This document shows, piece after piece, positions 4,923 through 43,690 of a stretch of 64,000 nucleotides of DNA (position 1 is its first letter; every line of letters begins with the position of its first letter). The notes beneath the pieces were generated by a model. That model did not search any database. It was not told the DNA's origin and worked only from the letters and a program-made list of their open reading frames with translations. Source of the stretch: an uncultured Candidatus Saccharibacteria bacterium. Its GTDB lineage: Bacteria; Patescibacteriota; Minisyncoccia; UBA6257; 2-01-FULL-56-20. The DNA lies in the NCBI GenBank assembly GCA_964387675.1, contig CAYLWL010000003.1:6436-70435 (forward strand). Direction: 5' to 3'. The position numbers and the translations under genes are program-made.

Positions 4923-5405
4923 ATGCTTCCTAAAAAAATCTTAATTCTACTCGTTGCCGCTGTCGTCGTAATCCTGGCGTTCGGCATCTGGCTCGGTTCG
5001 CTTATTTTGCGCGAGAAGAAAATTAATCCCGCGGGCTCTTCCCAATACTCCGCCGTGTATCTTACGACAGGCGACATTTACTTCGGCAAGCTTTCCTGGT
5101 TTCCGTATCCGCGGCTGAAGAACGTCTGGTTTTTGCAGAGATCGGTTGGCCAGAATAATCAAGTCCAGCTCGGCATCGGTCAATTCAACAACGCGTTCTG
5201 GAGTCCGGTGGACGAGGTTCGCTTAAACCCAAAGCAGATTATTTTGTGGGCGACTCTGCGGAATGACAGCCAGGTTATCAAAGTGTTCGACAATCCGAGC
5301 TTACTCCAGCAATCTTCTCCTTCCGCTGACGGAAGCGCGCCTCAGATTTCTCCTTCAACGAGCACCTTTAGCGGCCCATCGGGTCAGCCGCCAAGCAGAA
5401 ATTAG
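4923..5405 (+). CDS. Hypothetical membrane-anchored protein with Ser/Pro-rich C-terminus
   Basis: N-terminal TM helix (ILILLVAAVVVILAFGIWLGSLIL) and a low-complexity SP-rich tail. Confidence 0.4.
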   Translation: MLPKKILILLVAAVVVILAFGIWLGSLILREKKINPAGSSQYSAVYLTTGDIYFGKLSWFPYPRLKNVWFLQRSVGQNNQVQLGIGQFNNAFWSPVDEVRLNPKQIILWATLRNDSQVIKVFDNPSLLQQSSPSADGSAPQISPSTSTFSGPSGQPPSRN

Positions 5406-5477
5406 TCCGCCCACCAGGACTTGAACCTGGAACCGTCTCCTTAAGAGGGAGCTGCTCTGCCATTGAGCTATGGGCGG
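5406..5477 (-). tRNA. tRNA-Lys (anticodon CTT)
   Basis: Reverse complement folds as a cloverleaf. Acceptor CCGCCCA/TGGGCGG, D-stem GCTC/GAGC, anticodon loop CTCTTAA (anticodon CTT), T-arm CCAGG-TTCAAGT-CCTGG, discriminator A. No encoded CCA. Confidence 0.75.
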
Positions 5478-5520
5478 AAGATTATTTACTTCTTATATTG
5501 TAGTTTATAGAGCGAGCTTT

Positions 5521-5647
5521 TCTCTTTTCGAGAAGCTATCGGACCCAGCCGCAGCTTGGTCTCCGACCGGAGTCGGAGTGCGGCTGGGGAGATGCAGGCG
5601 CGTTCCGACCGCTGGAGTCGGAACGACGCCGGTTCTCGAAAAGAGAA
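5521..5647. repeat. GC-rich structured element, family D copy A, bounded by 14-bp inverted repeat
   Basis: TCTCTTTTCGAGAA at 5521-5534 pairs with TTCTCGAAAAGAGA at 5634-5647. The core CTTGGTCTCCGACCGGAGTCGGAGTG is shared in reverse orientation with the copy at 43486-43635. Confidence 0.5.
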
Positions 5648-5710
5648 ATGCGAGCGGAGTTATCCACAGCCCTCCCCAACCGATTTGTTATAATAATTCT
5701 AACGTAAGAA

Positions 5711-10341: not shown

Positions 10342-10409
10342 CCTGCCTGCCGGCAGGCAGGTTTCCGCCTCGGGGAAACTACCGTTTCCCCTGCCTGCCG
10401 GCAGGCAGG
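10342..10409. repeat. Two copies of a perfect 20-bp GC-rich palindrome CCTGCCTGCCGGCAGGCAGG (10342-10361, 10390-10409); a third copy at 16349-16368 upstream of tuf
   Basis: Read directly from the sequence. Each copy is preceded by GGTTTTA. They sit upstream of the divergent tRNA-Arg and the 9430-10296 gene. Confidence 0.6.
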
Positions 10410-10483
10410 CCGGCCCCTTTCCCGTTCGACTCCTGCCGGATTAAGTAAAAACAGGATTACATCAATCTTGTTTTTACTTAATG

Positions 10484-10556
10484 CGTCCCCGGCAGGAGTC
10501 GAACCCGCAACCTCTTGGTTCGAAGCCAAGCGCTCTATCCATTGAGCTACGGGGAC
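10484..10556 (-). tRNA. tRNA-Arg (anticodon TCG)
   Basis: Reverse-complement cloverleaf. Acceptor GTCCCCG/CGGGGAC, D-stem GCTC/GAGC, anticodon stem CTTGG/CCAAG with loop CTTCGAA (anticodon TCG), T-arm GCGGG-TTCGACT-CCTGC, discriminator G. Confidence 0.75.
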
Positions 10557-12977: not shown

Positions 12978-15098
12978 ATGCCCCGACTGTATCCGATAGA
13001 AAAGGTACGTAATATCGGCATTATTGCCCATATCGACGCCGGGAAGACCACCGTCTCCGAGCGCGTGCTTTTTTATACCGGCGTTTCTCACAAAATCGGC
13101 GAGGTGCACACGGGTGATACCGTGATGGATTGGATGGAACAGGAACGCGAACGGGGGATCACCATCACCTCCGCCGCCACCACGGCTTTTTGGATACCGA
13201 CGCATGTTAGCAAAGAGCAAAGAGCAAAGAGCAAAGAGGACGAGCACATGATCAATTTAATCGATACTCCGGGACACATCGATTTTACCGTGGAGGTCAA
13301 GCGCTCGCTTCGCGTTTTGGACGGCGCCGTCGTCGTGTTCGACGGCGTGGCCGGCGTTGAGCCCCAGTCGGAAACCAACTGGCGTTACGCGGACGAATAC
13401 CACGTGCCGAGAGTTTGCTTTATTAACAAGCTGGACAGAATGGGCGCGAGCTTCGAGAAAAGTTTCGAGTCCATCAAAGATCGTCTTACTCAAAACGCCA
13501 TCCCCATCCAGCTCAACATCGGCCTCGAGGGGGATTTTAAGGGAGTAATAGATCTTCTTGAGGATAAGGCCTACGAATTCCAAGGGGAGCACGGCGAACG
13601 CATCGTCGAGGTTCCGACTCCGGACAATATGAAAGAGTCCATCAAAAAGCACCGCCACGAACTGATCGAAAAGATCGTTGATAATGACGACGAGCTGATG
13701 GCGGGCTATCTTGAGGGAAAAGACATAGACATTGCTTCGCTCAAGAAAGTTTTGCGGAAGGCCGTCATCGAGAACAAGATCGTGCCGGTGATGTGCGGTT
13801 CGGCCCTGAAGAACAAGGGAGTCCAGTTCATGCTCGACGCGGTGGTTGATTACCTGCCGTCTCCGCTTGACATTCCGCCGGTCAAGGGCATTGACCAAAA
13901 GACCGGAGCGGAAGTGTTTCGGCACCCCAAAGACGAAGAGCCGTTTTCCGCGCTCGCGTTCAAAATAGCGACCGATCCGTACGTGGGAACGCTCACATAC
14001 TTCAGGAATTATTCCGGCGTGCTCAAGAAGGGCTCGTATATTTTGAACTCCACGAAAGGCCAGCAGGAGCGCGTGGGCCGCGTCGTCCGCATGCACGCGA
14101 ACTCAAGGGAAGAAGTGGACGAAATTTACGCCGGTGAAATCGCGGCGATCGTCGGCTTGAAGAACACGACGACGGGGGACACCCTGTGCTCTCCCGACGC
14201 GCCTTTGGTGCTCGAGAGGATCACGTTTCCCGAGCCCGTCATCGGCATTCGCATTGAACCCAAAACGAAAGCCGACCAGGAGAAAATGGGCACTGCTCTG
14301 CATCGTCTCGCGGAAGAAGACCCGACGTTCCGCGTTGCCGGGGACCCGGAAACCGGAGAAACCATCATCTCCGGCATGGGCGAACTGCATTTGGAAATTA
14401 TCGTCGACCGGATGAAGCGCGAGTTCAGCGTCGATGCCTCCGTTGGCAGGCCGCAAGTCGCGTATAAAGAAACGATCATGGCCGAAGCCGAGGCGGAAGG
14501 AAAATACATCAAGCAGTCGGGGGGTCGCGGCCAATACGGGCACGTGCGCTTGCGCGTAAAGCCCCTGGAACGTGGCAAGGGATTCGAGTTTATCGACGAG
14601 ATCAAAGGAGGCGTCATTCCGCAGGAGTTCATCGCTCCGGTTGAAAAAGGCGTGAAGGAGGCGCTTGACAAAGGCGTGATCGCGCATTATCCGATGGTGG
14701 ATATCGAGGTGACGCTCTACGACGGATCGTTCCACGAAGTTGATTCTTCGGAGGCGGCGTTCAAGATCGCGGGATCCATGGCTCTCCAGGAAGCCGCGAA
14801 GCGCGCGAAGCCGGTGATTCTTGAGCCCGTTATGAAAATTCAAGTCGTGATCCCCACGGAATTTTTAGGAGAAGTTACGGGCAATTTGAATTCGAAACGC
14901 GGAAGAATCGAAGAACTTTCCGACCGGCCGAACGTTAAAGTGATCGACGCCAAAGTCCCGCTTTCCGAAATGTTCGGATATGCCACGGAACTTCGCTCGA
15001 TGACGCAAGGACGAGGGGCATTCACGTTAGAGTTTGATCATTACGAACCCGCCCCCCAAAATGTTGCCCAACTCATAATTGAAGGCAAAAAAAGGTAG
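12978..15098 (+). CDS. fusA: Elongation factor G
   Basis: [18 protein letters not shown] and full EF-G domains. It contains an in-frame (CAAAGAG)3 repeat-derived insertion (KEQRAKSKE) just before DTPGH. Confidence 0.95.
13209..13232 (+). repeat. (CAAAGAG)3 heptanucleotide repeat in-frame within fusA; solo fragment of the GCAAAGAGC arm family
   Basis: AGCAAAGAGCAAAGAGCAAAGAGG read directly from the sequence. It encodes [10 protein letters not shown] between switch-region motifs. Confidence 0.8.
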
Positions 15099-15408
15099 GG
15101 CAGAGAAAAAATCTCTTTCCTCAACCCGGATTTTTTGTTCCAGCGACAAAAAATCCTTGTCCTCGTGACGGCGGCCCTCCGACATGAAAACGGAGGGACC
15201 AAGCCCGTCTGCCGCGGAGTTTTGGAAAGAGTTTCTTCTCTTGCGTGAAGTCCGAGCGGGTAAGTCTTATTTCTCCATTGAGGTATATTTGCAACAAGTT
15301 GCCCGCCGAAAAGTCTCAAGCGTGCTGGACGAGTACAGTAAGTATACAAAAAAGCACGCGGCTGCTATACTCCAAGAAGCTCAATAACTTGTAAATAAGG
15401 AGGGCGTC

Positions 15409-16253: not shown

Positions 16254-16374
16254 GTCCACAGCCCCTCCCTTGACAGAAGAACCCTATCTGGCTTAAAATC
16301 CATTAAGATATAAATTAAATAGGTCGAAGAATGAGCTTTTAGGTTTTACCTGCCTGCCGGCAGGCAGGGCTTAT

Positions 16375-16444
16375 AGGTTTTAGAGTCCGGCGGTTGTCGG
16401 ACTAAAAGCTAGCACCTAGCACCTAACAGCTAAAAGCTAATTTT
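16375..16444. repeat. Family H intergenic repeat (AAAAGCTAA-containing), upstream of tuf; inverted-orientation copy at 45716-45783
   Basis: AAAAGCTAGCACCTAGCACCTAACAGCTAAAAGCTAA compared with GGTGTTAGCTGTTAGCTTTTAG...AAAAGCTAAAAGCTAA. Confidence 0.4.
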
Positions 16445-20328: not shown

Positions 20329-20982
20329 ATGAAAGCCACCGTTTACAATTTGAAGAACGAAAAAGTGGGCGAGATGGAATTGCCATCGTCGATCTTCGAA
20401 GCGAAGTGGAACCCCGTGCTCGTGGCGCAGGTTTTGCGCGCCCAGCTTGCCAACTCGCGCCGGCCTTGGGCTCACGCGAAAACGAGAGCCGAAGTGCGCG
20501 GCGGAGGCAGAAAACCCTGGAGACAAAAAGGAACAGGCAGAGCGAGGCACGGCTCTACTCGTTCTCCTCTCTGGGTCGGCGGCGGAAAAGCGCACGGCCC
20601 GAACAAACTCCGCGATTATAGCCAGAAAGTCAATAAAAAAATGGCCCGCTTGGCGCTTTTTTCCGCGCTCGCCAAGAAGCTCAAAGAGAACCAGCTCAAA
20701 GTGTTCGAAGACATGAACATTGCGGAGCCGAAAACCAAAGTCCTTTCCGCGACTCTCAAGCATCTTTTAAATTTGAAAAAAGATCACAAGAAGATGGACG
20801 TGCTCATGGTCGCCGACCGAGAGAACGCGAACGTTCGGCGCGCCTCATCTAACCTGGTGAAAGCGAAAACACTCGACGCACAATCGCTTAACATCTACGA
20901 CGTTTTGAACCACAAGAATATTTTCGTCGATAAAGCATCGGTTGGCGCGCTCACGAAACACTATGCTAGAAAACAGAAATGA
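20329..20982 (+). CDS. rplD: 50S ribosomal protein L4
   Basis: RGGGRKPWRQKGTGRARHGS...GGGKAHGP. Confidence 0.9.
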   Translation: MKATVYNLKNEKVGEMELPSSIFEAKWNPVLVAQVLRAQLANSRRPWAHAKTRAEVRGGGRKPWRQKGTGRARHGSTRSPLWVGGGKAHGPNKLRDYSQKVNKKMARLALFSALAKKLKENQLKVFEDMNIAEPKTKVLSATLKHLLNLKKDHKKMDVLMVADRENANVRRASSNLVKAKTLDAQSLNIYDVLNHKNIFVDKASVGALTKHYARKQK

Positions 20983-21058
20983 GAAATGAGACATGAGACA
21001 TGAGAAATGAGGAACGAAATACACGAAACCTAATCCCTCATATCTCATATCTATCATT
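20983..21058. repeat. Family E intercistronic palindromic element (GAGAAATGAG...CTCATTTCTC type), copy 1
   Basis: Copies fill the spacers at 21332-21417, 22240-22314, 23251-23329, 26464-26533, 27102-27196, 27746-27835, 28737-28822 and 29261-29323. A diverged copy is at 28190-28271 and a partial one at 62605-62645. Confidence 0.75.
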
Positions 21059-21331
21059 ATGAATACTTTCATCATCAAAAAGCCATTGATTACGGAACGC
21101 GCGACGAATTTGAGCAAACTCGGCAAATATGTTTTTATGGTTGCCGATTTTGCCACGAAGCCGGAGGTCAAAAAAGCGGTCAAGGAAATTTATAAAGTTG
21201 ATGCCGTTTCCGTGAACATCGTGGTGAAGCCGTCCAAAAAGAAAAGGATGGGATCGCTCAAGGGTCGGCGTAAAGGTTATAAAAAGGCGATTGTTACCCT
21301 GAAGAAAGGGCAGAAAATCGAGATACAGTAA
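21059..21331 (+). CDS. rplW: 50S ribosomal protein L23
   Basis: LITERATNLSKLGKYVFMVADFATKPEVKKAVKEIYKVDAVSVNI. Confidence 0.9.
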   Translation: MNTFIIKKPLITERATNLSKLGKYVFMVADFATKPEVKKAVKEIYKVDAVSVNIVVKPSKKKRMGSLKGRRKGYKKAIVTLKKGQKIEIQ

Positions 21332-21417
21332 GAAACTAGAAATGAGACATGAGAAATGAGGAACGAAATACATAAAACCTAATCTCTCATCTCTAATTTC
21401 TCATATCTATAAAATCA
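21332..21417. repeat. Family E element, copy 2
   Basis: AGAAATGAGACATGAGAAATGAGGAACGAAATACATAAAACCTAATCTCTCATCTCTAATTTCTCATATCT. Confidence 0.75.
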
Positions 21418-22239
21418 ATGAAAACCTATTCACCAACAACTCCATCGAGGCGAAGCATGACCGGCGTTGACTACGGCGCCTTGAGCAAAAAGCAACCCTA
21501 TAAACCGCTTCTTGTTCGGCTCAAATCAAATGCCGGCAGAAACTCGCAAGGGAGAATCACCGTGCGCCACCAAGGTGGAGGCAACAAAAAGCTGTACAGG
21601 ATGGTCGACTTTATGCAGAATACCCTGAATGCCAAGGCGGCTGTGGAATCGATTGAATACGATCCGTACCGGACGGCGTTCATCGCTCTCATCAAATATC
21701 CGAACAACGCGAAGAGTTATATTCTTGCGCCGAATACGCTGAAAGCGGGAGACACCGTTTTGGTGGCCGAAGCGGCGCCCCTCAAAGTCGGTAATCGTCT
21801 GAAGATGAAGAACATCCCCGTCGGTTACCAGGTGCACAGCGCGGAACTTTTGCCGGGACATGGCGGGAAGCTCGCGCGCTCGGCCGGTTCGTACGCCGAG
21901 GTTTTGGCGAACGCCGACGGTTACACGGACTTGAAATTGTCTTCGGGAGAAGTGCGGCGCGTTCCGTGGGAAGGGTTCGCCTCCGTCGGGCAGGTTTCGA
22001 ACGCGGAGCATAATCTTGTCGTTATCGGCAAGGCGGGAAGATCGCGGTGGCTCGGCGTGCGCCCCACAGTGCGCGGAAAAGCGATGAACCCGGTTGATCA
22101 CCCCTACGGAGGAGGCGAAGGGAGCCAGCCGCGCGGCACGAGAAAACCGAAGACCCTGTGGGGCAAGATCACCGGCGGCCATAAAACTCGAAACAAAAAG
22201 AAGTGGTCGAGCAAGATGATAGTTAAACGCAGAAAGTAG
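21418..22239 (+). CDS. rplB: 50S ribosomal protein L2
   Basis: 273 aa. GRNSQGRITVRHQGGG...HPYGGGEG. Confidence 0.95.
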   Translation: MKTYSPTTPSRRSMTGVDYGALSKKQPYKPLLVRLKSNAGRNSQGRITVRHQGGGNKKLYRMVDFMQNTLNAKAAVESIEYDPYRTAFIALIKYPNNAKSYILAPNTLKAGDTVLVAEAAPLKVGNRLKMKNIPVGYQVHSAELLPGHGGKLARSAGSYAEVLANADGYTDLKLSSGEVRRVPWEGFASVGQVSNAEHNLVVIGKAGRSRWLGVRPTVRGKAMNPVDHPYGGGEGSQPRGTRKPKTLWGKITGGHKTRNKKKWSSKMIVKRRK

Positions 22240-22314
22240 AAATGAGGCATGAGAAATGAGGAACGAAATACACAAAACCTAATCTCTCATATCTAATTTC
22301 TCATATCTTTTACC
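22240..22314. repeat. Family E element, copy 3
   Basis: GAAATGAGGCATGAGAAATGAGGAACGAAATACACAAAACCTAATCTCTCATATCTAATTTCTCATATC. Confidence 0.75.
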
Positions 22315-22641
22315 ATGTCCAGAAGTTCCAAAAAGGGTCCCTACGTCGATCCAAAACTCTTAAAAAAGATTTCCAAACTGAAGCCGGAGAGCGCGCCGGT
22401 TATTAAAACGTGGTCCAGAGCATCCGAGATTTCTCCGGAAATGGTTGGTTTTATCATCGGCGTTCACAACGGCAAAGTGTTTACCGAGGTCAGAATTTCG
22501 GAGGATATGGTGGGCCATCGGCTCGGCGAGTTTTCTCCGACGAGAAAATTCGTGCGGCACGGCGGAAAGATACAAAAAGAACTGGAGCAAAAGACCGCGC
22601 AGGCAGCGGCTCCGGCGGCGGCAAAAGAAACCAAAAAGTAA
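22315..22641 (+). CDS. rpsS: 30S ribosomal protein S19 (with C-terminal extension)
   Basis: [15 protein letters not shown]...[13 protein letters not shown]. Confidence 0.9.
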
Positions 22642-22728
22642 TCACTAATAACGCGAATACCGGCAAATAACGCTAAGACGACTCGCATTATTACCTAAAA
22701 ACGATTAGCATTATTCGCGAATACTCCC
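22642..22728. repeat. Cargo-less (empty) copy of the AATAACGCGAATA / TATTCGCGAATACTCC inverted-repeat element that elsewhere carries the GxxExxY gene
   Basis: Both arms face each other with a ~50-bp spacer. The right arm ends at the rplV ATG. Confidence 0.6.
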
Positions 22729-23250
22729 ATGACGAAGCAAACGGCAAAACTGAATTACTTGCGAATGACGCCACGAAAAGTGCGGCTGGTTGCCGATCTT
22801 ATCAAGGGCCTGCCTATTAACGAAGCCGAGGCCCAGCTTTTGACGATCCGCAAAAGAGCTGCGGTGCCGCTGTTGAAACTTCTGCGTTCGGCGATGGCCA
22901 ACGTGAAGAACAATAAAAAGTTGAGCGAAGAGAGATTTTTCATAGAAACCTTGAAGGTGGACGGCGGGCCGATGCTCAAACGGTTCCTTCCGCGCGCGCG
23001 CGGCATGGCAACGCCGATTCAGAAAAAAATGAGCCACGTGACGATGGTGCTCGCGGAGCATCCGGACGCGAAGCCGCCTCGGTTCAAGATCGTAGTTCGG
23101 AAGAAAACCAAACTGCCGCCCGGTTCCGAGGGCCCGGTCCGGAGACAAAAGCCAGAGAGGCCGAAAAAGCCGGAACAGGAGGGAGCGAAACCGAAGTCGA
23201 CCGGTTTCTTCAAGAAACTATTCAGGCGGAAAGCCGGATTCGCTAAATAA
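22729..23250 (+). CDS. rplV: 50S ribosomal protein L22 (with basic C-terminal extension)
   Basis: RMTPRKVRLVADLIKGLPINEAEAQL... Confidence 0.9.
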   Translation: MTKQTAKLNYLRMTPRKVRLVADLIKGLPINEAEAQLLTIRKRAAVPLLKLLRSAMANVKNNKKLSEERFFIETLKVDGGPMLKRFLPRARGMATPIQKKMSHVTMVLAEHPDAKPPRFKIVVRKKTKLPPGSEGPVRRQKPERPKKPEQEGAKPKSTGFFKKLFRRKAGFAK

Positions 23251-23329
23251 GAAAACAGAAATGAGAAAGGAGAAATTAGGAACGCTTAACGACCTCATTT
23301 CTCATATCTAATCTCTCATCTCTAACACC
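23251..23329. repeat. Family E element, copy 4 (diverged)
   Basis: GAAATGAGAAAGGAGAAATTAGGAACG...CCTCATTTCTCATATCTAATCTCTCATCTC. Confidence 0.65.
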
Positions 23330-24001
23330 ATGGGACACAAAATTAATCCATTATCACTACGAGTCGGCGTCACGAAGAACTGGCCAGTCAGATGGTTTAT
23401 TAAAGGTAAGTACGCCAAGTTTTTGGAGGAGGACGAAGCGATACGGAACGTGATCAGGTTGAAAATCGGCCAGGCCGGCATTTCCGCGATCGAGATAGAA
23501 CGAACCCAAGGGAGCGTCAAAGTTTTCATCAAAGCCGCGAGGCCCGGGTTCGTAATCGGCCGAGGCGGAAAAGGCATCGAGGATCTGAACAAAGCAATAG
23601 AGAAGGCCTTGAAAAAGGTCCGCAAAGTAAAAACCGCGATTGCTTTAAGCGTGAACGTGGAGGAATTGAAGAGATCGGAAATCGCCGCGCCGTACGTCGC
23701 CCAGCAAATCGCCTGGGATCTCGAGAAGCGTCTGCCGTTCCGGAGAACGCTGAAAAAATATCTTGAAGGAATTATGCAAAACAGGGAAGTGAAGGGAGCG
23801 AAGATCATGATGTCGGGCAGATTGGACGGCAACGAAATAGCGAGGACGGAGTGGCTGGCCAAGGGGTCATTGCCTCTTCAGACATTCCGCGCCGACATCG
23901 ACTATGGAACATCCACCGCTTTTACGACCTATGGAACAATCGGAATAAAGGTGTGGATATATAAGGGCGAGATATTCGCTGACGCTCAAAATAAAAATTA
24001 A
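23330..24001 (+). CDS. rpsC: 30S ribosomal protein S3
   Basis: MGHKINPLSLRVGVTKNW..., with KH and S3-C domains. Confidence 0.9.
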   Translation: MGHKINPLSLRVGVTKNWPVRWFIKGKYAKFLEEDEAIRNVIRLKIGQAGISAIEIERTQGSVKVFIKAARPGFVIGRGGKGIEDLNKAIEKALKKVRKVKTAIALSVNVEELKRSEIAAPYVAQQIAWDLEKRLPFRRTLKKYLEGIMQNREVKGAKIMMSGRLDGNEIARTEWLAKGSLPLQTFRADIDYGTSTAFTTYGTIGIKVWIYKGEIFADAQNKN

Positions 24002-24113
24002 AAAATCAAAAATCAAGATGACAATGCAAAATGTAAAATTAAATAAATTAAAAGTCGTGTCCGCAGGACCCCTAAATTTTGCATTTTGATCTTTGCATTT
24101 TGCATTTACTGAT
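24002..24113. repeat. Family F element, copy 2
   Basis: Near-identical to 20237-20328. Confidence 0.7.
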
Positions 24114-24524
24114 ATGTTGATTCCAAAGAAAGTAAAACATCGTAAGTGGCAGAAAGGCCGCTCGAAGAGACGGCTTGTGGAAACGCGCGGTCTTACTTTG
24201 AATTATGGCCAATATGGTTTAAAATCCCTGGAAGCGGCGTGGCTCAATTCTCGCCAGATCGAGGCGGCGCGGAAAACCATAACGAATTTCTTGAAGCGCA
24301 GCGGCCGCCTGTGGATCAGGGTTTTTCCGGATAAACCGATCACTCAGCAAGCTCCGGAGAAAACGTTGGGCGGCGGCAAGGGCAGTGTCGAATATTATGT
24401 TTTTCCGGTGAGGCCGGGGAGGATTATTTTCGAGATTGACGGCGTTCCCAAAGAAACCGCCACCGAGGCGCTCCGGCTGGCTTCTTATAAACTGCCGTTC
24501 AAAAGCAGAATCATAACCAAATAA
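24114..24524 (+). CDS. rplP: 50S ribosomal protein L16
   Basis: MLIPKKVKHRKWQKGR... Start at the ATG at 24114. The ORF track's TTG at 24093 lies in the repeat. Confidence 0.9.
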   Translation: MLIPKKVKHRKWQKGRSKRRLVETRGLTLNYGQYGLKSLEAAWLNSRQIEAARKTITNFLKRSGRLWIRVFPDKPITQQAPEKTLGGGKGSVEYYVFPVRPGRIIFEIDGVPKETATEALRLASYKLPFKSRIITK

Positions 24525-24629
24525 CAAGCGAAATACTAATATACTAATTCGTGCGAATGATACTAATGGATACTAATTCGTATTATTTGTATCATTAGCA
24601 TGCATTCGTATATTGGTATCACATTATTC
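24525..24629. repeat. Family G element, copy 2
   Basis: Near-identical to 19565-19666. Ends at the rpmC start. Confidence 0.75.
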
Positions 24630-24836
24630 ATGAGAAAGAAAGAAATCCAAGAATTAAAAATGAAGCCCGCGGCCGAGCTCCAAAAGTTCCTGAAAGACGG
24701 ACGGGAACGGCTCCGCTCGTTGAAGTTCGATTTGGCCGCAGGCAAAGTGAAAAACGTGAAGGAGCTCCGCACGCTCAAAAAAGACCTCGCGAGAGCCAAC
24801 ACGTTCATACACGCTTCCCGGTCGGGGAATAAATAA
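24630..24836 (+). CDS. rpmC: 50S ribosomal protein L29
   Basis: MRKKEIQELKMKPAAELQKFLKDGRERLRSLKF. Confidence 0.85.
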   Translation: MRKKEIQELKMKPAAELQKFLKDGRERLRSLKFDLAAGKVKNVKELRTLKKDLARANTFIHASRSGNK

Positions 24837-24840
24837 ACTT

Positions 24841-25107
24841 ATGGAACAAGTCAAAAAAAGAAAAATAACCGGCGTCGTGGTCAGCGACAAAATGATGAAA
24901 ACGAGAGTGGTTGAGGTCAAACGATCGAAGAAGCACCCGAAGTATCTCAAGTACTACACGGTGACGACCAAGTTTAAAGCCCATGACGAAAAGAACGATT
25001 ACCACGTGGGCGATGTGGTTATTATGGAAGAAACCAGGCCTCTCTCGAAAGAGAAGAGGTGGCGCATTATTGGAGTAGTCGCTAATAATGCGAATAAAAA
25101 GAGGTAA
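24841..25107 (+). CDS. rpsQ: 30S ribosomal protein S17
   Basis: ITGVVVSDKMMKTRVVEVKR...YHVGDVVIMEETRPLSKEKRW. The last 8 codons (ANNANKKR) are encoded by the AATAACGCGAATA repeat arm. Confidence 0.9.
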   Translation: MEQVKKRKITGVVVSDKMMKTRVVEVKRSKKHPKYLKYYTVTTKFKAHDEKNDYHVGDVVIMEETRPLSKEKRWRIIGVVANNANKKR

Positions 25108-25160
25108 TAACGCGAATCCGCGTTATTAAATAAAAATTAGCGTTATTCGCGAATACTACA
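25078..25160. repeat. Second cargo-less copy of the AATAACGCGAATA/TATTCGCGAATACT element, overlapping the rpsQ 3' end and ending at the rplN ATG
   Basis: GCTAATAATGCGAATAAAAAGAGGTAATAACGCGAATCCGCGTTATTAAATAAAAATTAGCGTTATTCGCGAATACTACA. Confidence 0.6.
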
Positions 25161-25529
25161 ATGATCCAAGAACGCTCAATACTCAAGGTGGCCGACAACA
25201 GCGGCGCGAAGATCGTGCGGTGCTTTAGAATTCTGGGCGGCACAAGAAGGCGATACGCGAGGATCGGCGATATCATCGTGACCTCCGTTCAGGTGGCCGA
25301 GCCGCGCAAGACCATCAAGAAAAAAGACATTGTGAAGGTTCTGATCGTTCGGCAGAGAGCTCCGTTGCGGCGCAAAGACGGCTCGTATATCCGTTTCGAC
25401 GACAACGCCGTCGTGGTGATAGATGCCAAGCGCGAGCCGGTCGCGACAAGAATCTTCGGCCCGATGCCGCGCGAGCTCAAAGAAAAAGGGTTCGATACCC
25501 TTATGACAATGGCGGAAGAAATCGTATAA
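25161..25529 (+). CDS. rplN: 50S ribosomal protein L14
   Basis: MIQERSILKVADNSGAK... Confidence 0.95.
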   Translation: MIQERSILKVADNSGAKIVRCFRILGGTRRRYARIGDIIVTSVQVAEPRKTIKKKDIVKVLIVRQRAPLRRKDGSYIRFDDNAVVVIDAKREPVATRIFGPMPRELKEKGFDTLMTMAEEIV

Positions 25530-25630
25530 GCGAGATACTAATATACTAATTCGTGCGAATGATACTAATGAATACTAATTCGTATTATTTGTATCATTAG
25601 CATGCATTCGTATATTGGTATCACATGTAT
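25530..25630. repeat. Family G element, copy 3
   Basis: Near-identical to 19565-19666. Confidence 0.75.
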
Positions 25631-25936
25631 ATGAACATTAAAAAAGGTGACCAAGTAAAAATTCTTTCCGGAAAAGACCGGGGCAAAACCGGAGCCGTGT
25701 TAAACGTTTTCCCGAAAGACGGGAAAATTTCGGTGGAAGGATTGAACGTGTATAAAAAACGGGTGCGCCCGAAGCGCCAGGGGCAGAAGGGCGAAACGGT
25801 TTTAGTGCCGAGGTCTTTTTACGCTTCCAAGGCGATGGTGATCTGTTCGAATTGCAAAGAGCCGGCTCGTTTGGGTCATCGTTTGGAAGGCAAGAAGAAG
25901 GTCCGCTACTGCAAAAAGTGTAAAGCGGCGATATAG
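25631..25936 (+). CDS. rplX: 50S ribosomal protein L24 with C-terminal C4 zinc-ribbon-like extension
   Basis: KOW motif KKGDQVKILSGKDRGKTG. The C-terminus CSNCKEPARLGHRLEGKKKVRYCKKCK replaces the usual L24 C-terminal half. Confidence 0.85.
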   Translation: MNIKKGDQVKILSGKDRGKTGAVLNVFPKDGKISVEGLNVYKKRVRPKRQGQKGETVLVPRSFYASKAMVICSNCKEPARLGHRLEGKKKVRYCKKCKAAI

Positions 25937-25944
25937 TAAGAAAC

Positions 25945-26463
25945 ATGACACAGCACAAATCTAAACAATCAAATCTTGGCTTTGAAGCAACAAAGTTTCT
26001 TGAGAAAGTTGTGATTGACGTTGGCGTGGGACGCTTGAGCGGCCAGCCGAATTTCGAAGAAAAAGCGCTCTCTCAAATCACGAAAGATCTCTCTCTCGTT
26101 GCTGGTCAGAAGCCGCAGGTGAGGCGCGCGAAGAAGTCAATCGCCGGATTCAAAACGAGGGAAGGCCAGATCGTCGGTTTAAGAGTAACGCTCCGAAAAA
26201 AGAAAATGGTTGATTTTTTCGAGCGGCTCATTAGAATAGTATTGCCGCGCGTGCGAGATTTCAGGGGGCTCGATCCGAACATTATCGATCAAGGCGGCAC
26301 GTTGAACATCGGCCTCAAGGAATCAGTTGTTTTTCCGGAAATCAACCCGGAGCAGTCGCCCATTTCATTTTCGCTGGGAATCAGCGCGGTTCCAAGAATA
26401 AAAAATCGGGAAAAATCAGTCGAACACTTCAGAGCCCTCGGGGTACCATTAAAAAAGAAATGA
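25945..26463 (+). CDS. rplE: 50S ribosomal protein L5
   Basis: FEATKFLEKVVIDVGVG...RDFRGL. Confidence 0.9.
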   Translation: MTQHKSKQSNLGFEATKFLEKVVIDVGVGRLSGQPNFEEKALSQITKDLSLVAGQKPQVRRAKKSIAGFKTREGQIVGLRVTLRKKKMVDFFERLIRIVLPRVRDFRGLDPNIIDQGGTLNIGLKESVVFPEINPEQSPISFSLGISAVPRIKNREKSVEHFRALGVPLKKK

Positions 26464-26533
26464 GAAATAAAGAAATGAGAAATTAGGATTTTCGTCCTCA
26501 TGTCTCATCTCTTATGCCTCATATCTTGTCACC
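26464..26533. repeat. Family E element, copy 5 (diverged)
   Basis: GAGAAATAAAGAAATGAGAAATTAGG...CCTCATGTCTCATCTCTTATGCCTCATATC. Confidence 0.65.
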
Positions 26534-26719
26534 ATGCCTAAAACATCCTGGATAGCAAGAAGTAAAAAACAGCCGAAACATAAAACACGCGACGTGAATC
26601 GGTGTTTTCGATGCGGCAGAAAACGCGGCTATATGCGGGATTTTAATCTTTGCAGGATTTGTTTTCGGGAAATGGCGAGCCATCAAGAGATACCCGGAGT
26701 AAAAAAAGCAAGCTGGTAA
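26534..26719 (+). CDS. rpsN: 30S ribosomal protein S14 (type Z, zinc-binding)
   Basis: 61 aa. [23 protein letters not shown]. Confidence 0.9.
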
Positions 26720-26723
26720 ATTC

Positions 26724-27101
26724 ATGTATTACGATTTATTGCCAAAACTGAAGAATGCCGAAGCCGCGGGGAAAGAAACGGTTTTGGCGCCTTTTTCCAA
26801 GATGGATCTGAGCGTCTGCAAAATTCTTGCCGACGCCGGTTATATCAAAGACGCCAAAGAAAAAACACTGGGCCGCAAGAGATTTATCGAAATCCGGATG
26901 TTCGGCAGAAGAAAGCGCCTCATCAACGGCGTGAAGATTATGAGCAAGCCAAGCAGGCATTTGTATTTTTCGTATACCGACCTCCGCCCGGTGAAAAGCG
27001 GCCACGGGATCGGCGTCATATCGACTTCCAAAGGGATGATGACGCAAAAAGAAGCCAGAAAAAAGAAGGTCGGCGGGGAATATTTGTTCCAAATATGGTG
27101 A
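26724..27101 (+). CDS. rpsH: 30S ribosomal protein S8
   Basis: YYDLLPKLKNA...ILADAGYIKD...GIGVISTSKGMMT. Confidence 0.9.
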   Translation: MYYDLLPKLKNAEAAGKETVLAPFSKMDLSVCKILADAGYIKDAKEKTLGRKRFIEIRMFGRRKRLINGVKIMSKPSRHLYFSYTDLRPVKSGHGIGVISTSKGMMTQKEARKKKVGGEYLFQIW

Positions 27102-27196
27102 ATAGCTAGAAATCAGATATGAGATATGAGACATGAGAAATGAGGGACGAAATAAAAACCTAATTTCTCATTTCTAATTACTCATCTCTAACTACC
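27102..27196. repeat. Family E element, copy 6
   Basis: GATATGAGATATGAGACATGAGAAATGAGGGACG...CCTAATTTCTCATTTCTAATTACTCATCTCTAAC. Confidence 0.75.
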
Positions 27197-27745
27197 ATGA
27201 GCCGTTTAATCAAAAAACCAGTTCAAATATTGCCCGGCGTCCAGGTAAAAATAGACGGCGACTTTTTGGTTTTTAACGGCCCGAAAGGCGAGAACCGGCT
27301 CAGGATACCGGCATCGGTTGAGTTAAAAATTGACGCGGAGAACATTTGGCTCACGGCGAAAACGGAAAGCGAGCTCAATAAGGCCGTGTACGGAACAACG
27401 TGGTCGCTCATCAGGAATTCCGTGAATGGCGCCGCGAACGGCTTTATGAAGGTTTTAGAGATTGAGGGGGTTGGCTACCGCGCGGCTCTTGAGGGCAAGG
27501 AATTGGTTCTCTCGCTGGGTTATGTGAATCCGGTGCGCGTCAAGGTGCCGGACGGCATCGCAATCGAGGTTGAGAAAAACGTCATAAAAGTTTCCGGACA
27601 CGATAAAGATTTAGTCGGCAGAACCGCCTCGACTATCCGGGCCCTCAAAAAACCGGAGCCGTACAAGGGAAAGGGAATCCGATATCGGGGAGAAATTATC
27701 CGGAGGAAGGTCGGCAAGAAAGCGGGAGCGACGGCCGCCACATAA
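27197..27745 (+). CDS. rplF: 50S ribosomal protein L6
   Basis: MSRLIKKPVQILPGVQVKIDGDFLVFNGPKGE. Confidence 0.9.
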   Translation: MSRLIKKPVQILPGVQVKIDGDFLVFNGPKGENRLRIPASVELKIDAENIWLTAKTESELNKAVYGTTWSLIRNSVNGAANGFMKVLEIEGVGYRAALEGKELVLSLGYVNPVRVKVPDGIAIEVEKNVIKVSGHDKDLVGRTASTIRALKKPEPYKGKGIRYRGEIIRRKVGKKAGATAAT

Positions 27746-27835
27746 GAAATAAGACATGAGAAATGAGAGATGAGGAACGGAACACGTAAAAACCTAATTT
27801 CTCATTTCTAATTACTCATCTCTATTATATATACC
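27746..27835. repeat. Family E element, copy 7
   Basis: GACATGAGAAATGAGAGATGAGGAACGG...CCTAATTTCTCATTTCTAATTACTCATCTCTATT. Confidence 0.75.
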
Positions 27836-28189
27836 ATGAACCCCAGAAAACGTCTCAACAAAATACGGACGCGACGAACGGCAAGAACACGGGCCAAGAT
27901 TTTCGGCACGGCGAAAAAGCCGCGTCTTGCCGTGTCGCGCAGTAACCGTTATATTTATGCCCAGTTGATCAACGACGAAGCTGGACGAACCGTGGTTCAT
28001 GGTTCGGGCCAGGAGGTGAAGGGCAAGAAGCCGAAAACGGAAGTTGCCGCCTTGGTGGGAGAGTTGATCGGAAAAAGGGCGGTGGAAAAAGGGGTTACCT
28101 CGGCGGTTTTTGATCGCCGCGCGTATAAGTATCATGGTCGAATTAAGGCGCTGGCCGAAGGAGCGCGAAAGGCCGGACTTAAGTTATAA
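27836..28189 (+). CDS. rplR: 50S ribosomal protein L18
   Basis: [23 protein letters not shown]. Confidence 0.9.
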
Positions 28190-28271
28190 GACATCAGAAA
28201 CTAGACATCAGAAATCAGAACGTAGCCAACCCAAACTAATTACTGATAACTGATAACTAATCCCTATTAAT
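28190..28271. repeat. Diverged family E-like element (CATCAGAAAT...CTGATAACTGAT variant)
   Basis: GACATCAGAAACTAGACATCAGAAATCAGAACG...TAATTACTGATAACTGATAACTAAT has the same architecture with CAG/CTG in place of GAG/CTC. Confidence 0.55.
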
Positions 28272-28736
28272 ATGTTTCGACGTCCCGAGAAAAACTTAAA
28301 AAAAGAAGAGTTCAAAGATAAGGTGTTGGATCTGCGGCGGGTTACTCGCGTTGTTGCCGGAGGAAAACGCTTTCGTTTTCGCGCCACCGTGGTGCTTGGC
28401 GATGAGAAAGGCAGGGTGGGCATAGGCGTGGCGAAGGGGCTCGATGTCGCTCAATCCGTGGCGAAAGCGAAAACGGCGGCAAATAAGAATATGATGAGGA
28501 TTCCCCTTAAAGACGAACGGACGATAGCTCACGAGGTGTACGCGAAATACAGCGCCGCCAAGGTGCTCTTGAAGCCCGCCGGTTCCGGCCACGGTCTCCG
28601 GGCCGGAGGAGCGGTGCGTTCCGTGTTGGCCTTGGTCGGCATAAAAGACGCTACCGCGAAATGTCTTGGCAGGACCCCCAACAAACTGACGAATGCCATG
28701 GCAACGCTCGAGGCGTTGAAAAAATTAAAAGCATGA
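28272..28736 (+). CDS. rpsE: 30S ribosomal protein S5
   Basis: RVTRVVAGGKRFRFRATVVLGDEKGRVGIGVAKG. Confidence 0.9.
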   Translation: MFRRPEKNLKKEEFKDKVLDLRRVTRVVAGGKRFRFRATVVLGDEKGRVGIGVAKGLDVAQSVAKAKTAANKNMMRIPLKDERTIAHEVYAKYSAAKVLLKPAGSGHGLRAGGAVRSVLALVGIKDATAKCLGRTPNKLTNAMATLEALKKLKA

Positions 28737-28822
28737 AAAGGAATTAGACGAGAGACATTAGACATTAGGAACGACTTACATAAAACCTAATTTCTCATTT
28801 CTAATTACTCATCTCTATTACC
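28737..28822. repeat. Family E element, copy 8 (occupies the position where rpmD/L30 is normally found)
   Basis: AGACATTAGACATTAGGAACGACTTACATAAAACCTAATTTCTCATTTCTAATTACTCATCTCTATT. Confidence 0.7.
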
Positions 28823-29260
28823 ATGCAGCTGCACGAGCTCAAAAAATTCAGAAATAAAAACAAAAAACGCATCGGCCGCGGCGGCAAGCGCGGCAGTTAT
28901 TCGGGGCGCGGCGTGAAGGGTCAGAAATCGAGAGCGGGGAGGAGGATTCGCCCGGCAGAAAGAGATTTGATTATACGCCTGCCGAAGCGGCGCGGTTTTC
29001 GAAACAAACCCAAGAGTCCCAAGCCGATGGTTTTCAACCTGAAAGATTTGTCGAAGTATATCAAGACCCATTCCGAGAAAGGGAAAAGTTTGGTTATCGA
29101 TAAAACGTTCTTGCGGGAAGTCGGTCTTGTGCCGACCCATTATCGCGGTGAAGTGAAAATCTTGGGAATGGGAGAGGTGTATGCCCCCGTGAAAGTTCAA
29201 GGATTAAAATTGTCGAAGAGTGCTAAGATGAAGGTTGAGAAAGTAAGATATGAGAAATGA
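28823..29260 (+). CDS. rplO: 50S ribosomal protein L15
   Basis: KRIGRGGKRGSYSGRGVKGQKSRAG. Confidence 0.9.
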   Translation: MQLHELKKFRNKNKKRIGRGGKRGSYSGRGVKGQKSRAGRRIRPAERDLIIRLPKRRGFRNKPKSPKPMVFNLKDLSKYIKTHSEKGKSLVIDKTFLREVGLVPTHYRGEVKILGMGEVYAPVKVQGLKLSKSAKMKVEKVRYEK

Positions 29261-29323
29261 GATATGAGGGACGGAACGTATAAAAACCTAATTTCTCATC
29301 TCTAATTACTCATCTCTATTGCC
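29261..29323. repeat. Family E element, copy 9
   Basis: GATATGAGAAATGAGATATGAGGGACGG...CCTAATTTCTCATCTCTAATTACTCATCTCTATT. Confidence 0.75.
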
Positions 29324-36016: not shown

Positions 36017-36055
36017 ATCATTTCCGTTATAACATAATATTATGTTATAACGGAA
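36017..36055. repeat. Perfect AT-rich palindrome TTTCCGTTATAACATAAT|ATTATGTTATAACGGAAA between convergent genes; degenerate copy at about 52555-52595
   Basis: Read directly from the sequence. Could be a bidirectional terminator or protein-binding site. Confidence 0.55.
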
Positions 36056-36157
36056 ACAAAAAATTTGATTGCGGCTTAGTTTCCGTCTGCTCTTTTTATC
36101 TCTGCTCCCAAGATCGTAAAAATAAGCCCCTCCGACGCGCGTCGGAGGGGTGTTCGA

Positions 36158-40721: not shown

Positions 40722-40889
40722 ATGATGAGCAAGATGCGTTTTTCGGAACCGGCGGTTCGTCTGCTCCTGCGGCAGACGCCCGCCTGGCTCTCGGGCTTCT
40801 CGACCGAGCACAGAGAGAATTCTCTCTGTGCTCGGTACCAAGCCGAGAAGCCCTCCGAGGTCTTCCTCAAAACGCATCTTGCTCATCAT
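40722..40889. repeat. GC-rich structured element, family D copy B, bounded by 21-bp inverted repeat
   Basis: ATGATGAGCAAGATGCGTTTT...AAAACGCATCTTGCTCATCAT. Internal motifs TTCGGAACCGGCGGTTCG and CTTCCTCAAAAC are shared with copies C and D. Confidence 0.55.
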
Positions 40890-40902
40890 TAGCGCGTAGA
40901 AT

Positions 40903-42225: not shown

Positions 42226-43488
42226 ATGAAGTTTGTTGTAGAGGGTGGAAAAACTTTGCAAGGTGAAATCGAAGTACGGGGCGCGAAGAACTCTGTGATG
42301 AAAGCGATGGCCTGCTCGCTTCTTTTTGACGAGCCGGTAGTTCTCGAGAATGTGCCCTTGATCGAAGATGTGTTTAGGATGGCAGAGCTTTTGGAGAACC
42401 TGGGCGCGAAGGTAGAAAAAACGGGCGAGCGGAGTTTCCGGCTTGATCCAAGCGCTGCCGAAGGCACCGATTTGAGGAAAGAAATAGCCAAAAGACTGCG
42501 GGCATCGATCGTTATCGCGGGACCGCTCCTCGCGCGCAACAAAAAGGTTTCCTCTCCCCACCCCGGCGGATGCGTGATAGGGAAGAGGCCCATCGATCTG
42601 TTTCTTGATGGCTGGAGGGCTATGGGGGCGAACGTTACGGACGGCGAAGCCGGATTCGAGGTCGAAGCGGAAAAGTTGAAAGGAACGGATTTTACGTTCC
42701 GCGTGGTGAGCGTGACCGGAACGGAAACGTTGATGATGACCGCCGTGCTCGCCGATGGAAAAACGGTCTTGCGGAACGCGGCGATGGAGCCGGAAATTCC
42801 GGCGCTCGCGAAGTTTTTGAATGATTCCGGAGCCGAGATCAGCGGCGCGGGTACGCCGACCGTCGAGATTGTGGGTACGGGAGGACGATTGCTTCGCGCC
42901 AAAAGTCCTTTCCGGATTATTCCCGACAGGATTGAGGCGGGAAGTTTTTTGATACTGGGCGCGGCATTGGGCCGCAACGTGAAGATCAAAAACTGCAACC
43001 CCGAGCATCTTGCTTCTGTTATCGCGACATTGATCAGCGCGGGAGTGCCTATCGGCATCGGGAGAGATTGGATCTCCGTTTCGCGTCCTCCGAAGATTTC
43101 CGCTCTCGATGTGAAAACGAAAGAGTACCCCGGTTTCCCGACCGATTTGCAGGCGCCGATCACCGCGCTGATGACCCAGGCGGAAGGCGAAAGCAAGATC
43201 GTTGAAACCATATTTGAGAATAGGTTTGGGTATATTGAGGACTTAAAACGAATGGGCGCGAATATTATTTTGTGCGATCCACAGAGAATTTTAGTGAAAG
43301 GACCGACGGAACTCCGCGGACGGGAAATAGAAAGCCCGGATTTGCGAGCGGGGCTTGCGTTCGTGATCGCCGCGCTTCTCGCAAAAGGGGGGTCCGTGGT
43401 GAGTAATGTGTATCAAATCGACCGCGGATACGAAAAAATCGACGAGCGGTTGCGTTTGTTGGGAGCAGAGATAAAGAGAGTGGACTGA
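42226..43488 (+). CDS. murA: UDP-N-acetylglucosamine 1-carboxyvinyltransferase
   Basis: MKFVVEGGKTLQGEIEVRGAKNS..., an EPSP-synthase fold. The active-site Cys region is replaced by ...PGGCVIGKRPID. Confidence 0.9.
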   Translation: MKFVVEGGKTLQGEIEVRGAKNSVMKAMACSLLFDEPVVLENVPLIEDVFRMAELLENLGAKVEKTGERSFRLDPSAAEGTDLRKEIAKRLRASIVIAGPLLARNKKVSSPHPGGCVIGKRPIDLFLDGWRAMGANVTDGEAGFEVEAEKLKGTDFTFRVVSVTGTETLMMTAVLADGKTVLRNAAMEPEIPALAKFLNDSGAEISGAGTPTVEIVGTGGRLLRAKSPFRIIPDRIEAGSFLILGAALGRNVKIKNCNPEHLASVIATLISAGVPIGIGRDWISVSRPPKISALDVKTKEYPGFPTDLQAPITALMTQAEGESKIVETIFENRFGYIEDLKRMGANIILCDPQRILVKGPTELRGREIESPDLRAGLAFVIAALLAKGGSVVSNVYQIDRGYEKIDERLRLLGAEIKRVD

Positions 43489-43654: not shown

Positions 43655-43690
43655 AGCGGCCGCCAAATTTGGCGGCCGATTATTTATGAA
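43655..43690. terminator. Bidirectional terminator (perfect palindrome GGCCGCCAAATTTGGCGGCC)
   Basis: Flanked by A-rich sequence on the 5' side and T-rich on the 3' side. Lies between convergent murA and the lipoprotein gene. Confidence 0.5.

Follow-up and report, generated by a model that had tools for sequence, protein, structure and literature searches.

What are the GC-rich islands, each closed by its own inverted repeat, that lie between the genes of an uncultured Candidatus Saccharibacteria bacterium? The question is raised by a stretch of 64,000 nucleotides (contig CAYLWL010000003.1, positions 6,436 to 70,435; hereafter the window), in which an initial annotation had described four such islands as a family of structured elements, either a novel non-coding RNA (ncRNA) or a hairpin-forming mobile element. 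All four are real and lie where they had been placed, and a covariance model of the family, termed R1, finds five copies in the 64-kb window, one more than had been listed; the fifth, a diverged copy behind the gene of elongation factor G (EF-G), had been overlooked. The copies (c1 to c5) belong to an interspersed family of structured elements, uncatalogued and about 100-200 nt in length, that is confined to a subset of the Parcubacteria-type Patescibacteria (candidate phyla radiation, CPR). Among the explanations considered, a co-transcribed structured RNA module that spreads like a repetitive extragenic palindromic (REP) or Correia-type repeat is favoured, with roughly an even chance of being right.

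A family of structured elements in Patescibacteria

Copies c1-c4 share a 3' block from which the pattern ACCAAGC-N10-TCCGA-N3-CTTC was derived. Its only matches in the window are the sites of c1-c4, all without a mismatch, compared to 0.05 matches in shuffled windows. A scan pattern of the form ACCAAGC-N8-12-TCCGAKRKCTTCYYSA, for which about five chance matches were estimated, was applied to the GTDB representatives, one genome per species, and returned 53 stretches. Patescibacteria metagenome-assembled genomes (MAGs) contributed 41 of these, under the labels Liptonbacteria, Wolfebacteria, Azambacteria, Paceibacterota, Spechtbacterales, Parcubacteria and, in many cases, 'uncultured Saccharibacteria'; the remaining matches fall within coding sequence of Corynebacterium, Microbacterium, Alphaproteobacteria and others. 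R1 confirmed 41 of the 41 CPR loci (49 matches, two in some loci) and none of the seven non-CPR loci that were tested. The CPR matches also share upstream blocks that lie outside the pattern, namely UUUCGGAACC, a UCCNGCG-capped hairpin and CUGC-CUCUCG. Pattern scan and covariance model together yield 53 copies, all of them in Patescibacteria MAGs. The spacer behind the 3' end of the 23S rRNA is common to two loci labelled 'Saccharibacteria' (L051, L045; loci of the collection are given by their L numbers) and to a Liptonbacteria locus (L011), so that the 'Saccharibacteria' labels call for caution.

None of the 4227 models of Rfam 15 matches the element, either in a cmscan of the whole window at gathering score or in searches of c1 and c2-c4 at E <= 10. 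The only Rfam hits in the whole window at gathering score are two tRNAs, and 14 related loci gave rRNA and tRNA only. Pattern scans of IMG/VR produced a single chance match, which was rejected by the model, and thus no confirmed viral copy; blastn against PLSDB gave no match. A literature search turned up no account of an element of this kind from CPR bacteria, which is not proof of absence.

A three-way junction supported by compensatory changes

The same three-way junction, composed of a closing helix P1 and the two arms P2-P2a and P3-P4-P5, is predicted for all copies. RNAalifold gave the two arms when run on a plain MAFFT alignment of 36 copies, and addition of the closing helix leads to the complete junction. 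From the inner end of P1 (GGAA/UUCC), the order is CC, P2 (GCGG/CCGC), P2a, a single U and P3. The loop UCCNGCG, closed by a U.G pair, caps P2a. P3 is formed by GC.CUC with GAG.A.GC and is followed by an invariant pyrimidine internal loop (UC/UCC), the variable helix P4 of 8-10 bp and the variable hairpin P5, with an ACCAAG bulge on the 3' side of the arm. The near-invariant unpaired blocks are GGAACC, the UCCNGCG loop, CUGC/CUCUC, the ACCAAG bulge and UCCGAGAGCUUCC; the 5' blocks GGAACC, UCCNGCG and CUGC-CUCUC are conserved to this degree though absent from the search pattern.

Copy c3 (43486-43635(+); 115.5 bits with R1; z = -4.8, fold z-scores being measured against dinucleotide shuffles) illustrates the arrangement on the forward strand. 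The inner end of its P1 and the junction CC lie at 43509-43514 and GGAA pairs with UUCC at 43609-43612. P2 and the P2a hairpin take up 43515-43546, with the nearly invariant 7-nt loop UCCAGCG at 43528-43534, and the second arm extends over 43548-43608, where P4 consists of 43555-43564 paired with 43590-43599, P5 of 43565-43582 and the ACCAAG bulge of 43583-43588.

This secondary structure is backed by compensatory changes beyond the controls. Already in the MAFFT alignment, 91.9% of the cells are paired compared to 71.0% in shuffles and 39-51% with slid partners, and double changes occur in 254 cells compared to 67 in the control. The check proposed in the initial annotation, a covariation test on the four copies and any further ones in the genome, was applied to the 53 model-aligned copies. 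Here, 94.1% of the cells are paired (69.2% in shuffles, 36-50% with slid partners), double changes number 435 compared to 113, and 31 of 34 pairs show compensatory changes. Helix covariation across the family is strong, and the earlier description of variable closing stems with a conserved core holds.

Both-sided changes affect 4/4 pairs of P2 and 7/8 pairs of P2a, and compensatory changes are found in 10/10 pairs of P4. At the inner end of P1 the pairs are AU in 51-52 of 53 copies and GC in 47 of 53, with AU/GC exchanges one pair further out. A single pair of P3 covaries, C-G being exchanged for A-U in 9-10 sequences, and the register of P3 is therefore fixed; the rest of this helix is invariant. 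Extra length is confined to peripheral places, such as 48-49 nt in the P2a loop of c4, the long P5 of c2, about 130 nt between P3 and P1 in L058, and further extras in L034 and L053. A tertiary pairing of the P2a loop (CCAGC) with the junction (CGCUG) was considered and rejected; the variable loop position (A/G/U) does not covary with the invariant U.

The copies of the window

The R1 scores of c1-c4 span 73-116 bits. As initially described, each of these islands is closed by its own inverted repeat, with arms of 15-27 nt that differ among the four, and the short motifs quoted at that time are present in the orientation c1(-), c2(+), c3(+), c4(-), within a shared core that is much larger. The islands had also been called much richer in GC than their surroundings. 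They are richer than both flanks and window, but only moderately so (0.58-0.62 compared to 0.40-0.54 in the 200-nt flanks and 0.51 in the window).

Copy c1 is located at 5516-5651(-) (5521-5647 in the initial annotation) and reaches 100.8 bits with E = 1.5e-24 and a fold z-score of -8.7. Its P1 arms, 5516-5534 and 5633-5651(-), form the inverted repeat I15 (19 nt, 95% complementary), and the whole copy lies 38 nt upstream of tRNA-Lys (5405-5477(-)), on the same strand. A DnaA-box-like sequence, TTATCCACA (TGTGGATAA in element orientation), is found at 5660-5668, directly 5' of c1; the same box stands 5' of related copies in L005 and L057, and the whole window contains two such boxes.

Copy c2, at 40722-40889(+), has an enlarged P5 hairpin and scores 85.3 bits with a fold z-score of -13.3. 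The arms of its P1 (40722-40748 and 40863-40889(+)) correspond to the inverted repeat I2, with 27 nt and 93% complementarity. It starts 2 nt past the TAA (40718-40720) of a gene for a 601-aa DUF11 protein (Pfam) and ends about 14-27 nt ahead of glyQS; given this short distance, glyQS is probably co-transcribed through c2.

The P1 arms of c3, 43486-43512 and 43609-43635(+), are the inverted repeat I8 (27 nt, 78% complementary), whose first bases are at the same time the stop codon of murA (TGA, 43486-43488). A separate terminator lies at 43657-43678, 20 nt downstream of this copy.

Copy c4, at 44470-44662(-), scores 72.7 bits with a fold z-score of -8.0 and is closed by a helix of 15 bp (44470-44484 and 44648-44662(-)). 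It occupies the divergent region between a gene for a 229-aa protein (-) and mreB (+). The loop of its P2a contains a nested hairpin module (TCCCGA...TCGGGA, 44570-44617(-)) that splits UCCAG|CGG and appears as a 49-nt insertion in the model alignment. A hairpin module with similar ends (TCCCGCA...TGCGGGA) is nested in the copy of L058 (4745-4900), and such TCCCG-ended modules may constitute a further small insert family.

The diverged copy c5 extends over about 15100-15244(+), with a full-length R1 match at 15112-15236 (39.4 bits, E = 3e-8). It starts 2-4 nt past the stop codon (TAG, 15096-15098) of the EF-G gene fusA (open reading frame (ORF) 12978-15098), retains the UCCAGCG loop and the ACCAAGC bulge, and has a P1 of 20 bp.

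Public gene calls place a 56-aa ORF over c2 (40722-40892, corresponding to L001 8497-8667) and a 79-aa ORF over c4 (L139 2728-2967). Both calls are probably false, since the sequence is that of a covarying structured element in which changes in length break the reading frames.

A closing helix of variable sequence

P1 is present in nearly all copies, with a median length of 21 bp and sequences that are unrelated among the copies. The mean duplex energy is -30.9 kcal/mol, compared to -16.3 kcal/mol for shuffled arms. The outer arms differ from copy to copy and only the inner UUUCGGAA/UUCCUCAAA is common to them. Three copies of one Azambacteria MAG (L042, L046, L053) have the inner 10-12 bp of P1 in common and unique outer parts; the whole P1 together with a few flanking bases is shared within L016/L032 and within L023/L047/L054a. 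The 5' arm in L022 includes the last four codons of glycyl-tRNA synthetase (GlyRS). This GlyRS has a C-terminus of the same length and pattern as the enzyme of the window, and the 3' arm of P1 therefore complements native coding sequence.

A T-run (>= 5 T in 9 nt) follows 9 of the 53 P1 helices. Flanking direct repeats of at least 4 nt were found at 6 of 41 copies; permuted flanks lead one to expect 3.9, and a count of 6 is reached in 92 of 500 permutations. The P1 boundaries used here are approximate, and three of the six copies have a (T)CGCTC-like flank.

Position relative to genes

The initial annotation placed the islands next to highly expressed or essential genes. The regularity is a different one: the element usually lies directly behind a stop codon and in sense. 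With neighbour genes taken from crude longest-ORF calls in which the elements were masked, the stop codon of a co-oriented gene on the 5' side has a median distance of 19 nt (n = 28, 15 cases <= 20 nt), and that of a convergent gene on the 3' side a median distance of 121 nt (n = 21, no case <= 20 nt). The two sets of distances, measured to the model match, differ with p = 3.6e-5 (Mann-Whitney). Measured to the base of P1, the stop codon mostly falls between -9 and +7 nt. The upstream genes are functionally diverse and comprise murA, murB, glyQS and fusA and, as judged by eye, genes for GAPDH, superoxide dismutase, CorA and a sigma factor. Given this diversity, a gene-specific regulator is unlikely.

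The element is also found in sense between 23S and 5S rRNA in L011 and L051, where both rRNAs were placed by Rfam, and a third MAG carries a copy in sense behind the same 23S-end flank. Terminator-like hairpins accompany the 3' side of the element in 8 sense and 8 antisense cases of 47 (16/94 strand-sides), and the 5' side in 1 sense and 3 antisense cases of 47 (4/94 strand-sides). Within the window, the orientation of the copies tracks the local gene direction though the cumulative GC skew is monotonic.

Gain, loss and duplication of copies

The copies are gained, lost, duplicated and nested in the manner of a repeat. The murA surroundings of 80 other CPR metagenome contigs (540 kb) contain one copy only. 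It belongs to the closest relative, L058 (MurA 68% identical), and again lies directly behind murA; its P1 is unrelated in sequence to that of c3 and is still paired. In L058, both the c2 site and the c4 site lack a copy, and no copy follows murA in L059 and L060. At 68% identity, the nearest murA relatives are too distant to define insertion junctions. For the 229-aa neighbour of c4, the database holds the protein itself and one 62% homologue, and every contig with this protein derives from one and the same strain. In L059, mreB directly follows murA, in contrast to the window with its c3, gene and c4 at this place; the interval contains a different small GC-rich structured element (1600-1690) with a UCCGGCGG loop and ACCAAC, perhaps a distant or a miniature relative.

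Pairwise identity among the window copies is 46-68%, and copies in other MAGs come closer (up to 88%) to each of them. Near-identical duplicates within one genome, with an identity of 0.9-0.97, occur in some MAGs. Nested copies, in which one copy adjoins the 5' P1 arm of another, were found in L023, L047 and L054. Assemblies of the same strain from short reads are interrupted within c2, c3 and c4.

The element as apical domain of a larger RNA

In at least six MAGs, the element is the apex of a larger hairpin RNA with conserved flanks. This ncRNA of about 270-300 nt was located at L014 4380-4800(-), in L025, L030, L035, L039 and L055, and partially in L052. Its flanks read ..CCGUCUCGCAGGCCGAGCGGGCAKGGUGCGCCGCC before the element and GGCGGCGCGAGCGAGGCCGAGAGCGAGCG behind it, followed by a small hairpin and the closing stem; in L014, a terminator-like hairpin stands behind the ncRNA on the same strand. 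Two further copies (L054b, L039b) carry part of the ncRNA helix, GCGCCGCC/GGCGGCGC, as their P1.

The host ncRNA has no Rfam match at E <= 0.1 or E <= 10. Its 5' flank GGGCAGGGUGC resembles the P7/P8 region of the E. coli RNase P RNA; an RNase P RNA was rejected as identity of the host, which is too short and without an Rfam match. Signal recognition particle RNA and 6S RNA were likewise rejected for want of an Rfam match. Just behind the 3' end of the ncRNA, at L014 4203-4379(-), there is a weak match of the cobalamin-riboswitch type (22.4 bits, gathering score 31.5, E = 0.098).

RNA module or DNA-level repeat

According to the favoured reading, the element would be transcribed passively within host transcripts, behind the stop codon and ahead of any terminator. 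The long P1 and the compact core would provide a stable structure at the 3' end of the transcript or between cistrons. This structure might stop exonucleases or, in its long P1, offer a site to RNase III and thus shape mRNA ends, and the invariant single-stranded blocks would be displayed for a putative partner. Spread would take place at the DNA level, as a non-autonomous REP- or Correia-type repeat. Its orientation in sense, be it between a stop codon and a terminator, in the rRNA spacers or inside another RNA, suggests that the element resides on host transcripts and matters as RNA. A role as RNA is further suggested by old, diverged copies that keep the fold, by unpaired nucleotides that stay invariant and by expansion at peripheral loops only.

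Several points weigh against this reading. The family, its covarying structure, the positional rule and the repeat-like dynamics are directly observed; transcription is deduced from position, and the position itself depends on crude gene calls. Copies c1 and c4 reside in divergent intergenic regions without a co-oriented upstream gene, the promoter-like sites for both neighbours of c4 fall outside it, and a promoter scan found no own promoter for c1 or c4. Of the 20 copies that lie between co-directional genes, about 6 are in antisense to the genes on either side, with intact cores (L021, L015, L048). The 3' arms of P1 match local sequence, coding sequence included. Finally, the core helices contain 23 G.U pairs and 32 A.C mismatches in about 1750 cells, one invariant U.G excepted. 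With G.U nearly absent, the core gives no wobble-based strand signal and fits a Watson-Crick-only constraint at the DNA level as well; the G.U fraction in P1 is 8.9%.

These points lead to the strongest rival, a purely DNA-level mobile element of the type of a hairpin-forming miniature transposable element with inverted repeats (MITE) or of a REPIN (REP doublet forming a hairpin), which is possible, though doubtful. The core would then be a single-stranded DNA recognition structure for a transposase or recombinase encoded elsewhere, and the RNA would have no role. The copy-specific outer P1 would stem from insertion at palindromes, within them or beside them, for example at terminator stems or the hairpin tips of RNA genes; the three Azambacteria copies with their common inner and unique outer helix are in line with this, and in L053 the outer P1 together with TTTTATTTTG resembles a pre-existing terminator. 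The patchy multi-copy distribution, the nested copies, the recent duplicates that include P1, the assembly breaks, helices that are almost free of G.U with A.C just as frequent, the intact antisense copies and the location of c1 and c4 in promoter regions all speak for this reading. Other observations are difficult to reconcile with it, however. No terminal repeats are shared, target-site duplications are not in significant excess (6 compared to 3.9), and a T-run follows only 9 of 53 P1 helices. The strand asymmetry relative to the flanking stop codons is strong, the copies in rRNA spacers are in sense, and the orientation in the window follows gene direction despite the monotonic skew. All window copies keep the fold at 46-68% identity, and dead insertions would not be expected to undergo long-term selection copy by copy. 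IMG/VR and PLSDB also gave no match.

The proposal of a mobile element in the initial annotation was right insofar as the family is multi-copy, patchy and nested, and it shares with MITEs a small size, the lack of coding sequence and presence or absence between relatives. A strict MITE was rejected on the grounds that the terminal inverted repeats are copy-specific and target-site duplications are not in excess. Among the window neighbours, no transposase adjoins a copy.

A trans-acting or catalytic RNA, for instance a new self-cleaving ribozyme or a protein-sequestering RNA released from host transcripts, is rather unlikely. The multiple copies would here be a matter of dosage, and the version at the tip of the ncRNA would be ancestral or the master copy. 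In a compact three-way junction, about 30 unpaired nucleotides stay invariant amid variable helices and peripheral expansions, a conservation pattern that is seen in ribozymes, aptamers and protein-binding RNAs, and that is compatible with such a function rather than diagnostic of it. The copies are found in many unrelated gene contexts, as are known self-cleaving ribozymes, and the element is embedded in a conserved stand-alone RNA whose helix recurs as P1 in L054b and L039b. On the other hand, no Rfam ribozyme or small RNA family was matched, even at E <= 10, and no cleavage site, partner or target can be read from the sequence. Tight abutment to stop codons is not required by such a function, and the scan of c1 and c4 revealed no promoter of their own.

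One may go further and conceive of a new functional RNA class of the CPR, either a ribozyme that cleaves or processes itself or a docking site for an RNA-binding protein specific to the lineage. Such an RNA would define or protect mRNA 3' ends immediately behind the stop codon. It would also serve as apical domain of a housekeeping-type ncRNA, and the dispersed copies would be mobile derivatives of that ncRNA, analogous in bacteria to a short interspersed nuclear element (SINE) that descends from a structural RNA. This extended proposal is unlikely.

A cis-regulatory element of the adjacent genes (riboswitch, attenuator, T-box-like leader or intrinsic terminator) is very improbable: c2 lies just upstream of glyQS, c1 of tRNA-Lys and c4 of a gene, P1 is a strong helix and T-runs follow some copies, but the neighbour genes are functionally unrelated, the main position is behind stop codons and not in 5' leaders, the element follows glyQS in L022 instead of preceding it, a T-rich tail is present in 9 of 53 copies with c3 having a separate terminator at 43657-43678, and Rfam gives no T-box or riboswitch match.

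Comparison with known systems

The Correia repeats of Neisseria (Correia repeat enclosed elements, CREE; Neisseria miniature insertion sequences, NEMIS) duplicate a TA target. Target duplication is not seen in the CPR element. CREE copies, moreover, share their terminal inverted repeats and carry promoter and integration host factor (IHF) sites, whereas the closing helix of the CPR element differs per copy, its core is a covarying three-way junction and it is distributed over many distant MAG lineages instead of one genus. The likeness lies in non-coding intergenic repeats of 100-160 nt with inverted-repeat ends and a conserved core that are mobile and variable between strains. CREE are co-transcribed with neighbour genes, and their end hairpin binds RNase III and is cleaved or protected, which alters neighbour expression (PMC2649163). 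The corresponding co-transcription of the CPR element would follow from its position.

REPs, bacterial interspersed mosaic elements (BIMEs) and REPINs resemble the CPR element as abundant extragenic structured repeats behind stop codons, between convergent genes or genes of an operon. They differ in that REPs are simple imperfect palindromes of about 20-40 nt with conserved sequence, largely species-specific and tied to a gene for a REP-associated tyrosine transposase (RAYT), whereas the CPR element, at 100-200 nt, combines two different arms with loops and bulges that are invariant and an outer helix that is not conserved. A REP or REPIN was rejected as classification for these reasons, the unit being a three-way junction with two unlike arms and not a short palindrome. 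REPs within about 15 nt of a stop codon reportedly stall ribosomes and lower translation of the upstream gene, as is said to have been found by Liang, Rudd and Deutscher in 2015. This stalling would be the closest functional analogy to the stop-codon abutment of the CPR element. REPs also influence mRNA turnover (PMC3479197) and behave as miniature mobile DNA (PMC3116915; reviewed in PMC3184786).

The copies at the apex of the ncRNA helix and in the 23S-5S spacer recall the intervening sequences (IVS) of 23S rRNA. These are sporadic stem-loops with a long end helix that are located at helix tips or spacers of stable RNAs, are tolerated as helix extensions and are excised by RNase III. Unlike the CPR element, IVS are not known to have a conserved three-way-junction core that is shared across phyla or to lie behind the stop codons of protein genes. 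Multi-copy RNAs of Rfam, such as the hammerhead, twister and hatchet ribozymes, HEARO/omega-RNA and IS605-orfB, have many copies, conserved junction nucleotides, covarying helices and a patchy distribution in common with the element, yet none of the 4227 models of Rfam 15 matches it. Genes for IscB, TnpB or a reverse transcriptase do not adjoin the copies in the window.

Further classes were considered and rejected. The U-tract of an intrinsic terminator follows 9 of 53 P1 helices only. A riboswitch or T-box leader would be expected to show a constant association with the 5' untranslated region of one gene class, which was not found. The attC site of integrons, a simple bulged hairpin with conserved R''/R' core sites at its ends (RYYYAAC ... 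GTTRRRY), is not compatible with the outer ends of P1, which by inspection have no consensus in common, nor with housekeeping neighbours outside cassette arrays and a three-way junction.

Other repeats and features of the window

A second, unrelated family of intergenic repeats consists of tandem heptads, (N)ATGAGA three to four times, followed by an inverted copy, which form AT-rich hairpins. About ten sites lie within 20978-29300 (e.g. 27115-27189 and 27742-27823) and another at 62613-62632; the heptad pattern CATGAGAAATGAG has 34 matches with <= 2 mismatches compared to 1.8 expected. Inverted repeats of AGCTTTTAGC-like units are found at 16330-16442, before the probable gene of elongation factor Tu (EF-Tu), and at 45715-45782, directly behind mreB, with 11 matches compared to 4.7 expected, a weak excess.

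The region 10342-10504 contains two copies of the palindrome CCTGCCTGCCGGCAGGCAGG at a distance of 28 nt. The T-arm of tRNA-Arg (10483-10556, -) is partially repeated, in inverted form, beside the gene (10424-10439 against 10489-10504), which resembles an integration scar at a tRNA gene. One palindrome, TTTCCGTTATAACATAAT/ATTATGTTATAACGGAAA, perfect or nearly so, is present both at 36021-36056 and, far from there, at 52553-52594, and looks like an operator. The segment 53001-54000, with a GC content of 0.60 and a GC skew of -0.38, is by far the most extreme 1-kb bin of the window.

Meaning for the biology of the CPR

The CPR, or Patescibacteria, represent a large and mostly uncultured part of bacterial diversity, with tiny genomes and an RNA biology that is almost unexplored. 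It is in such compact genomes that an element of about 130 nt is kept in several copies. The R1 model can be used to flag likely spurious ORF calls and explains assembly breaks in these MAGs. As selfish DNA, the element would be a repeat of an unusual kind, with a closing helix made anew at every site, once from native coding sequence. Should it act at the RNA level instead, it would represent a new module that shapes mRNA 3' ends or recruits a factor.

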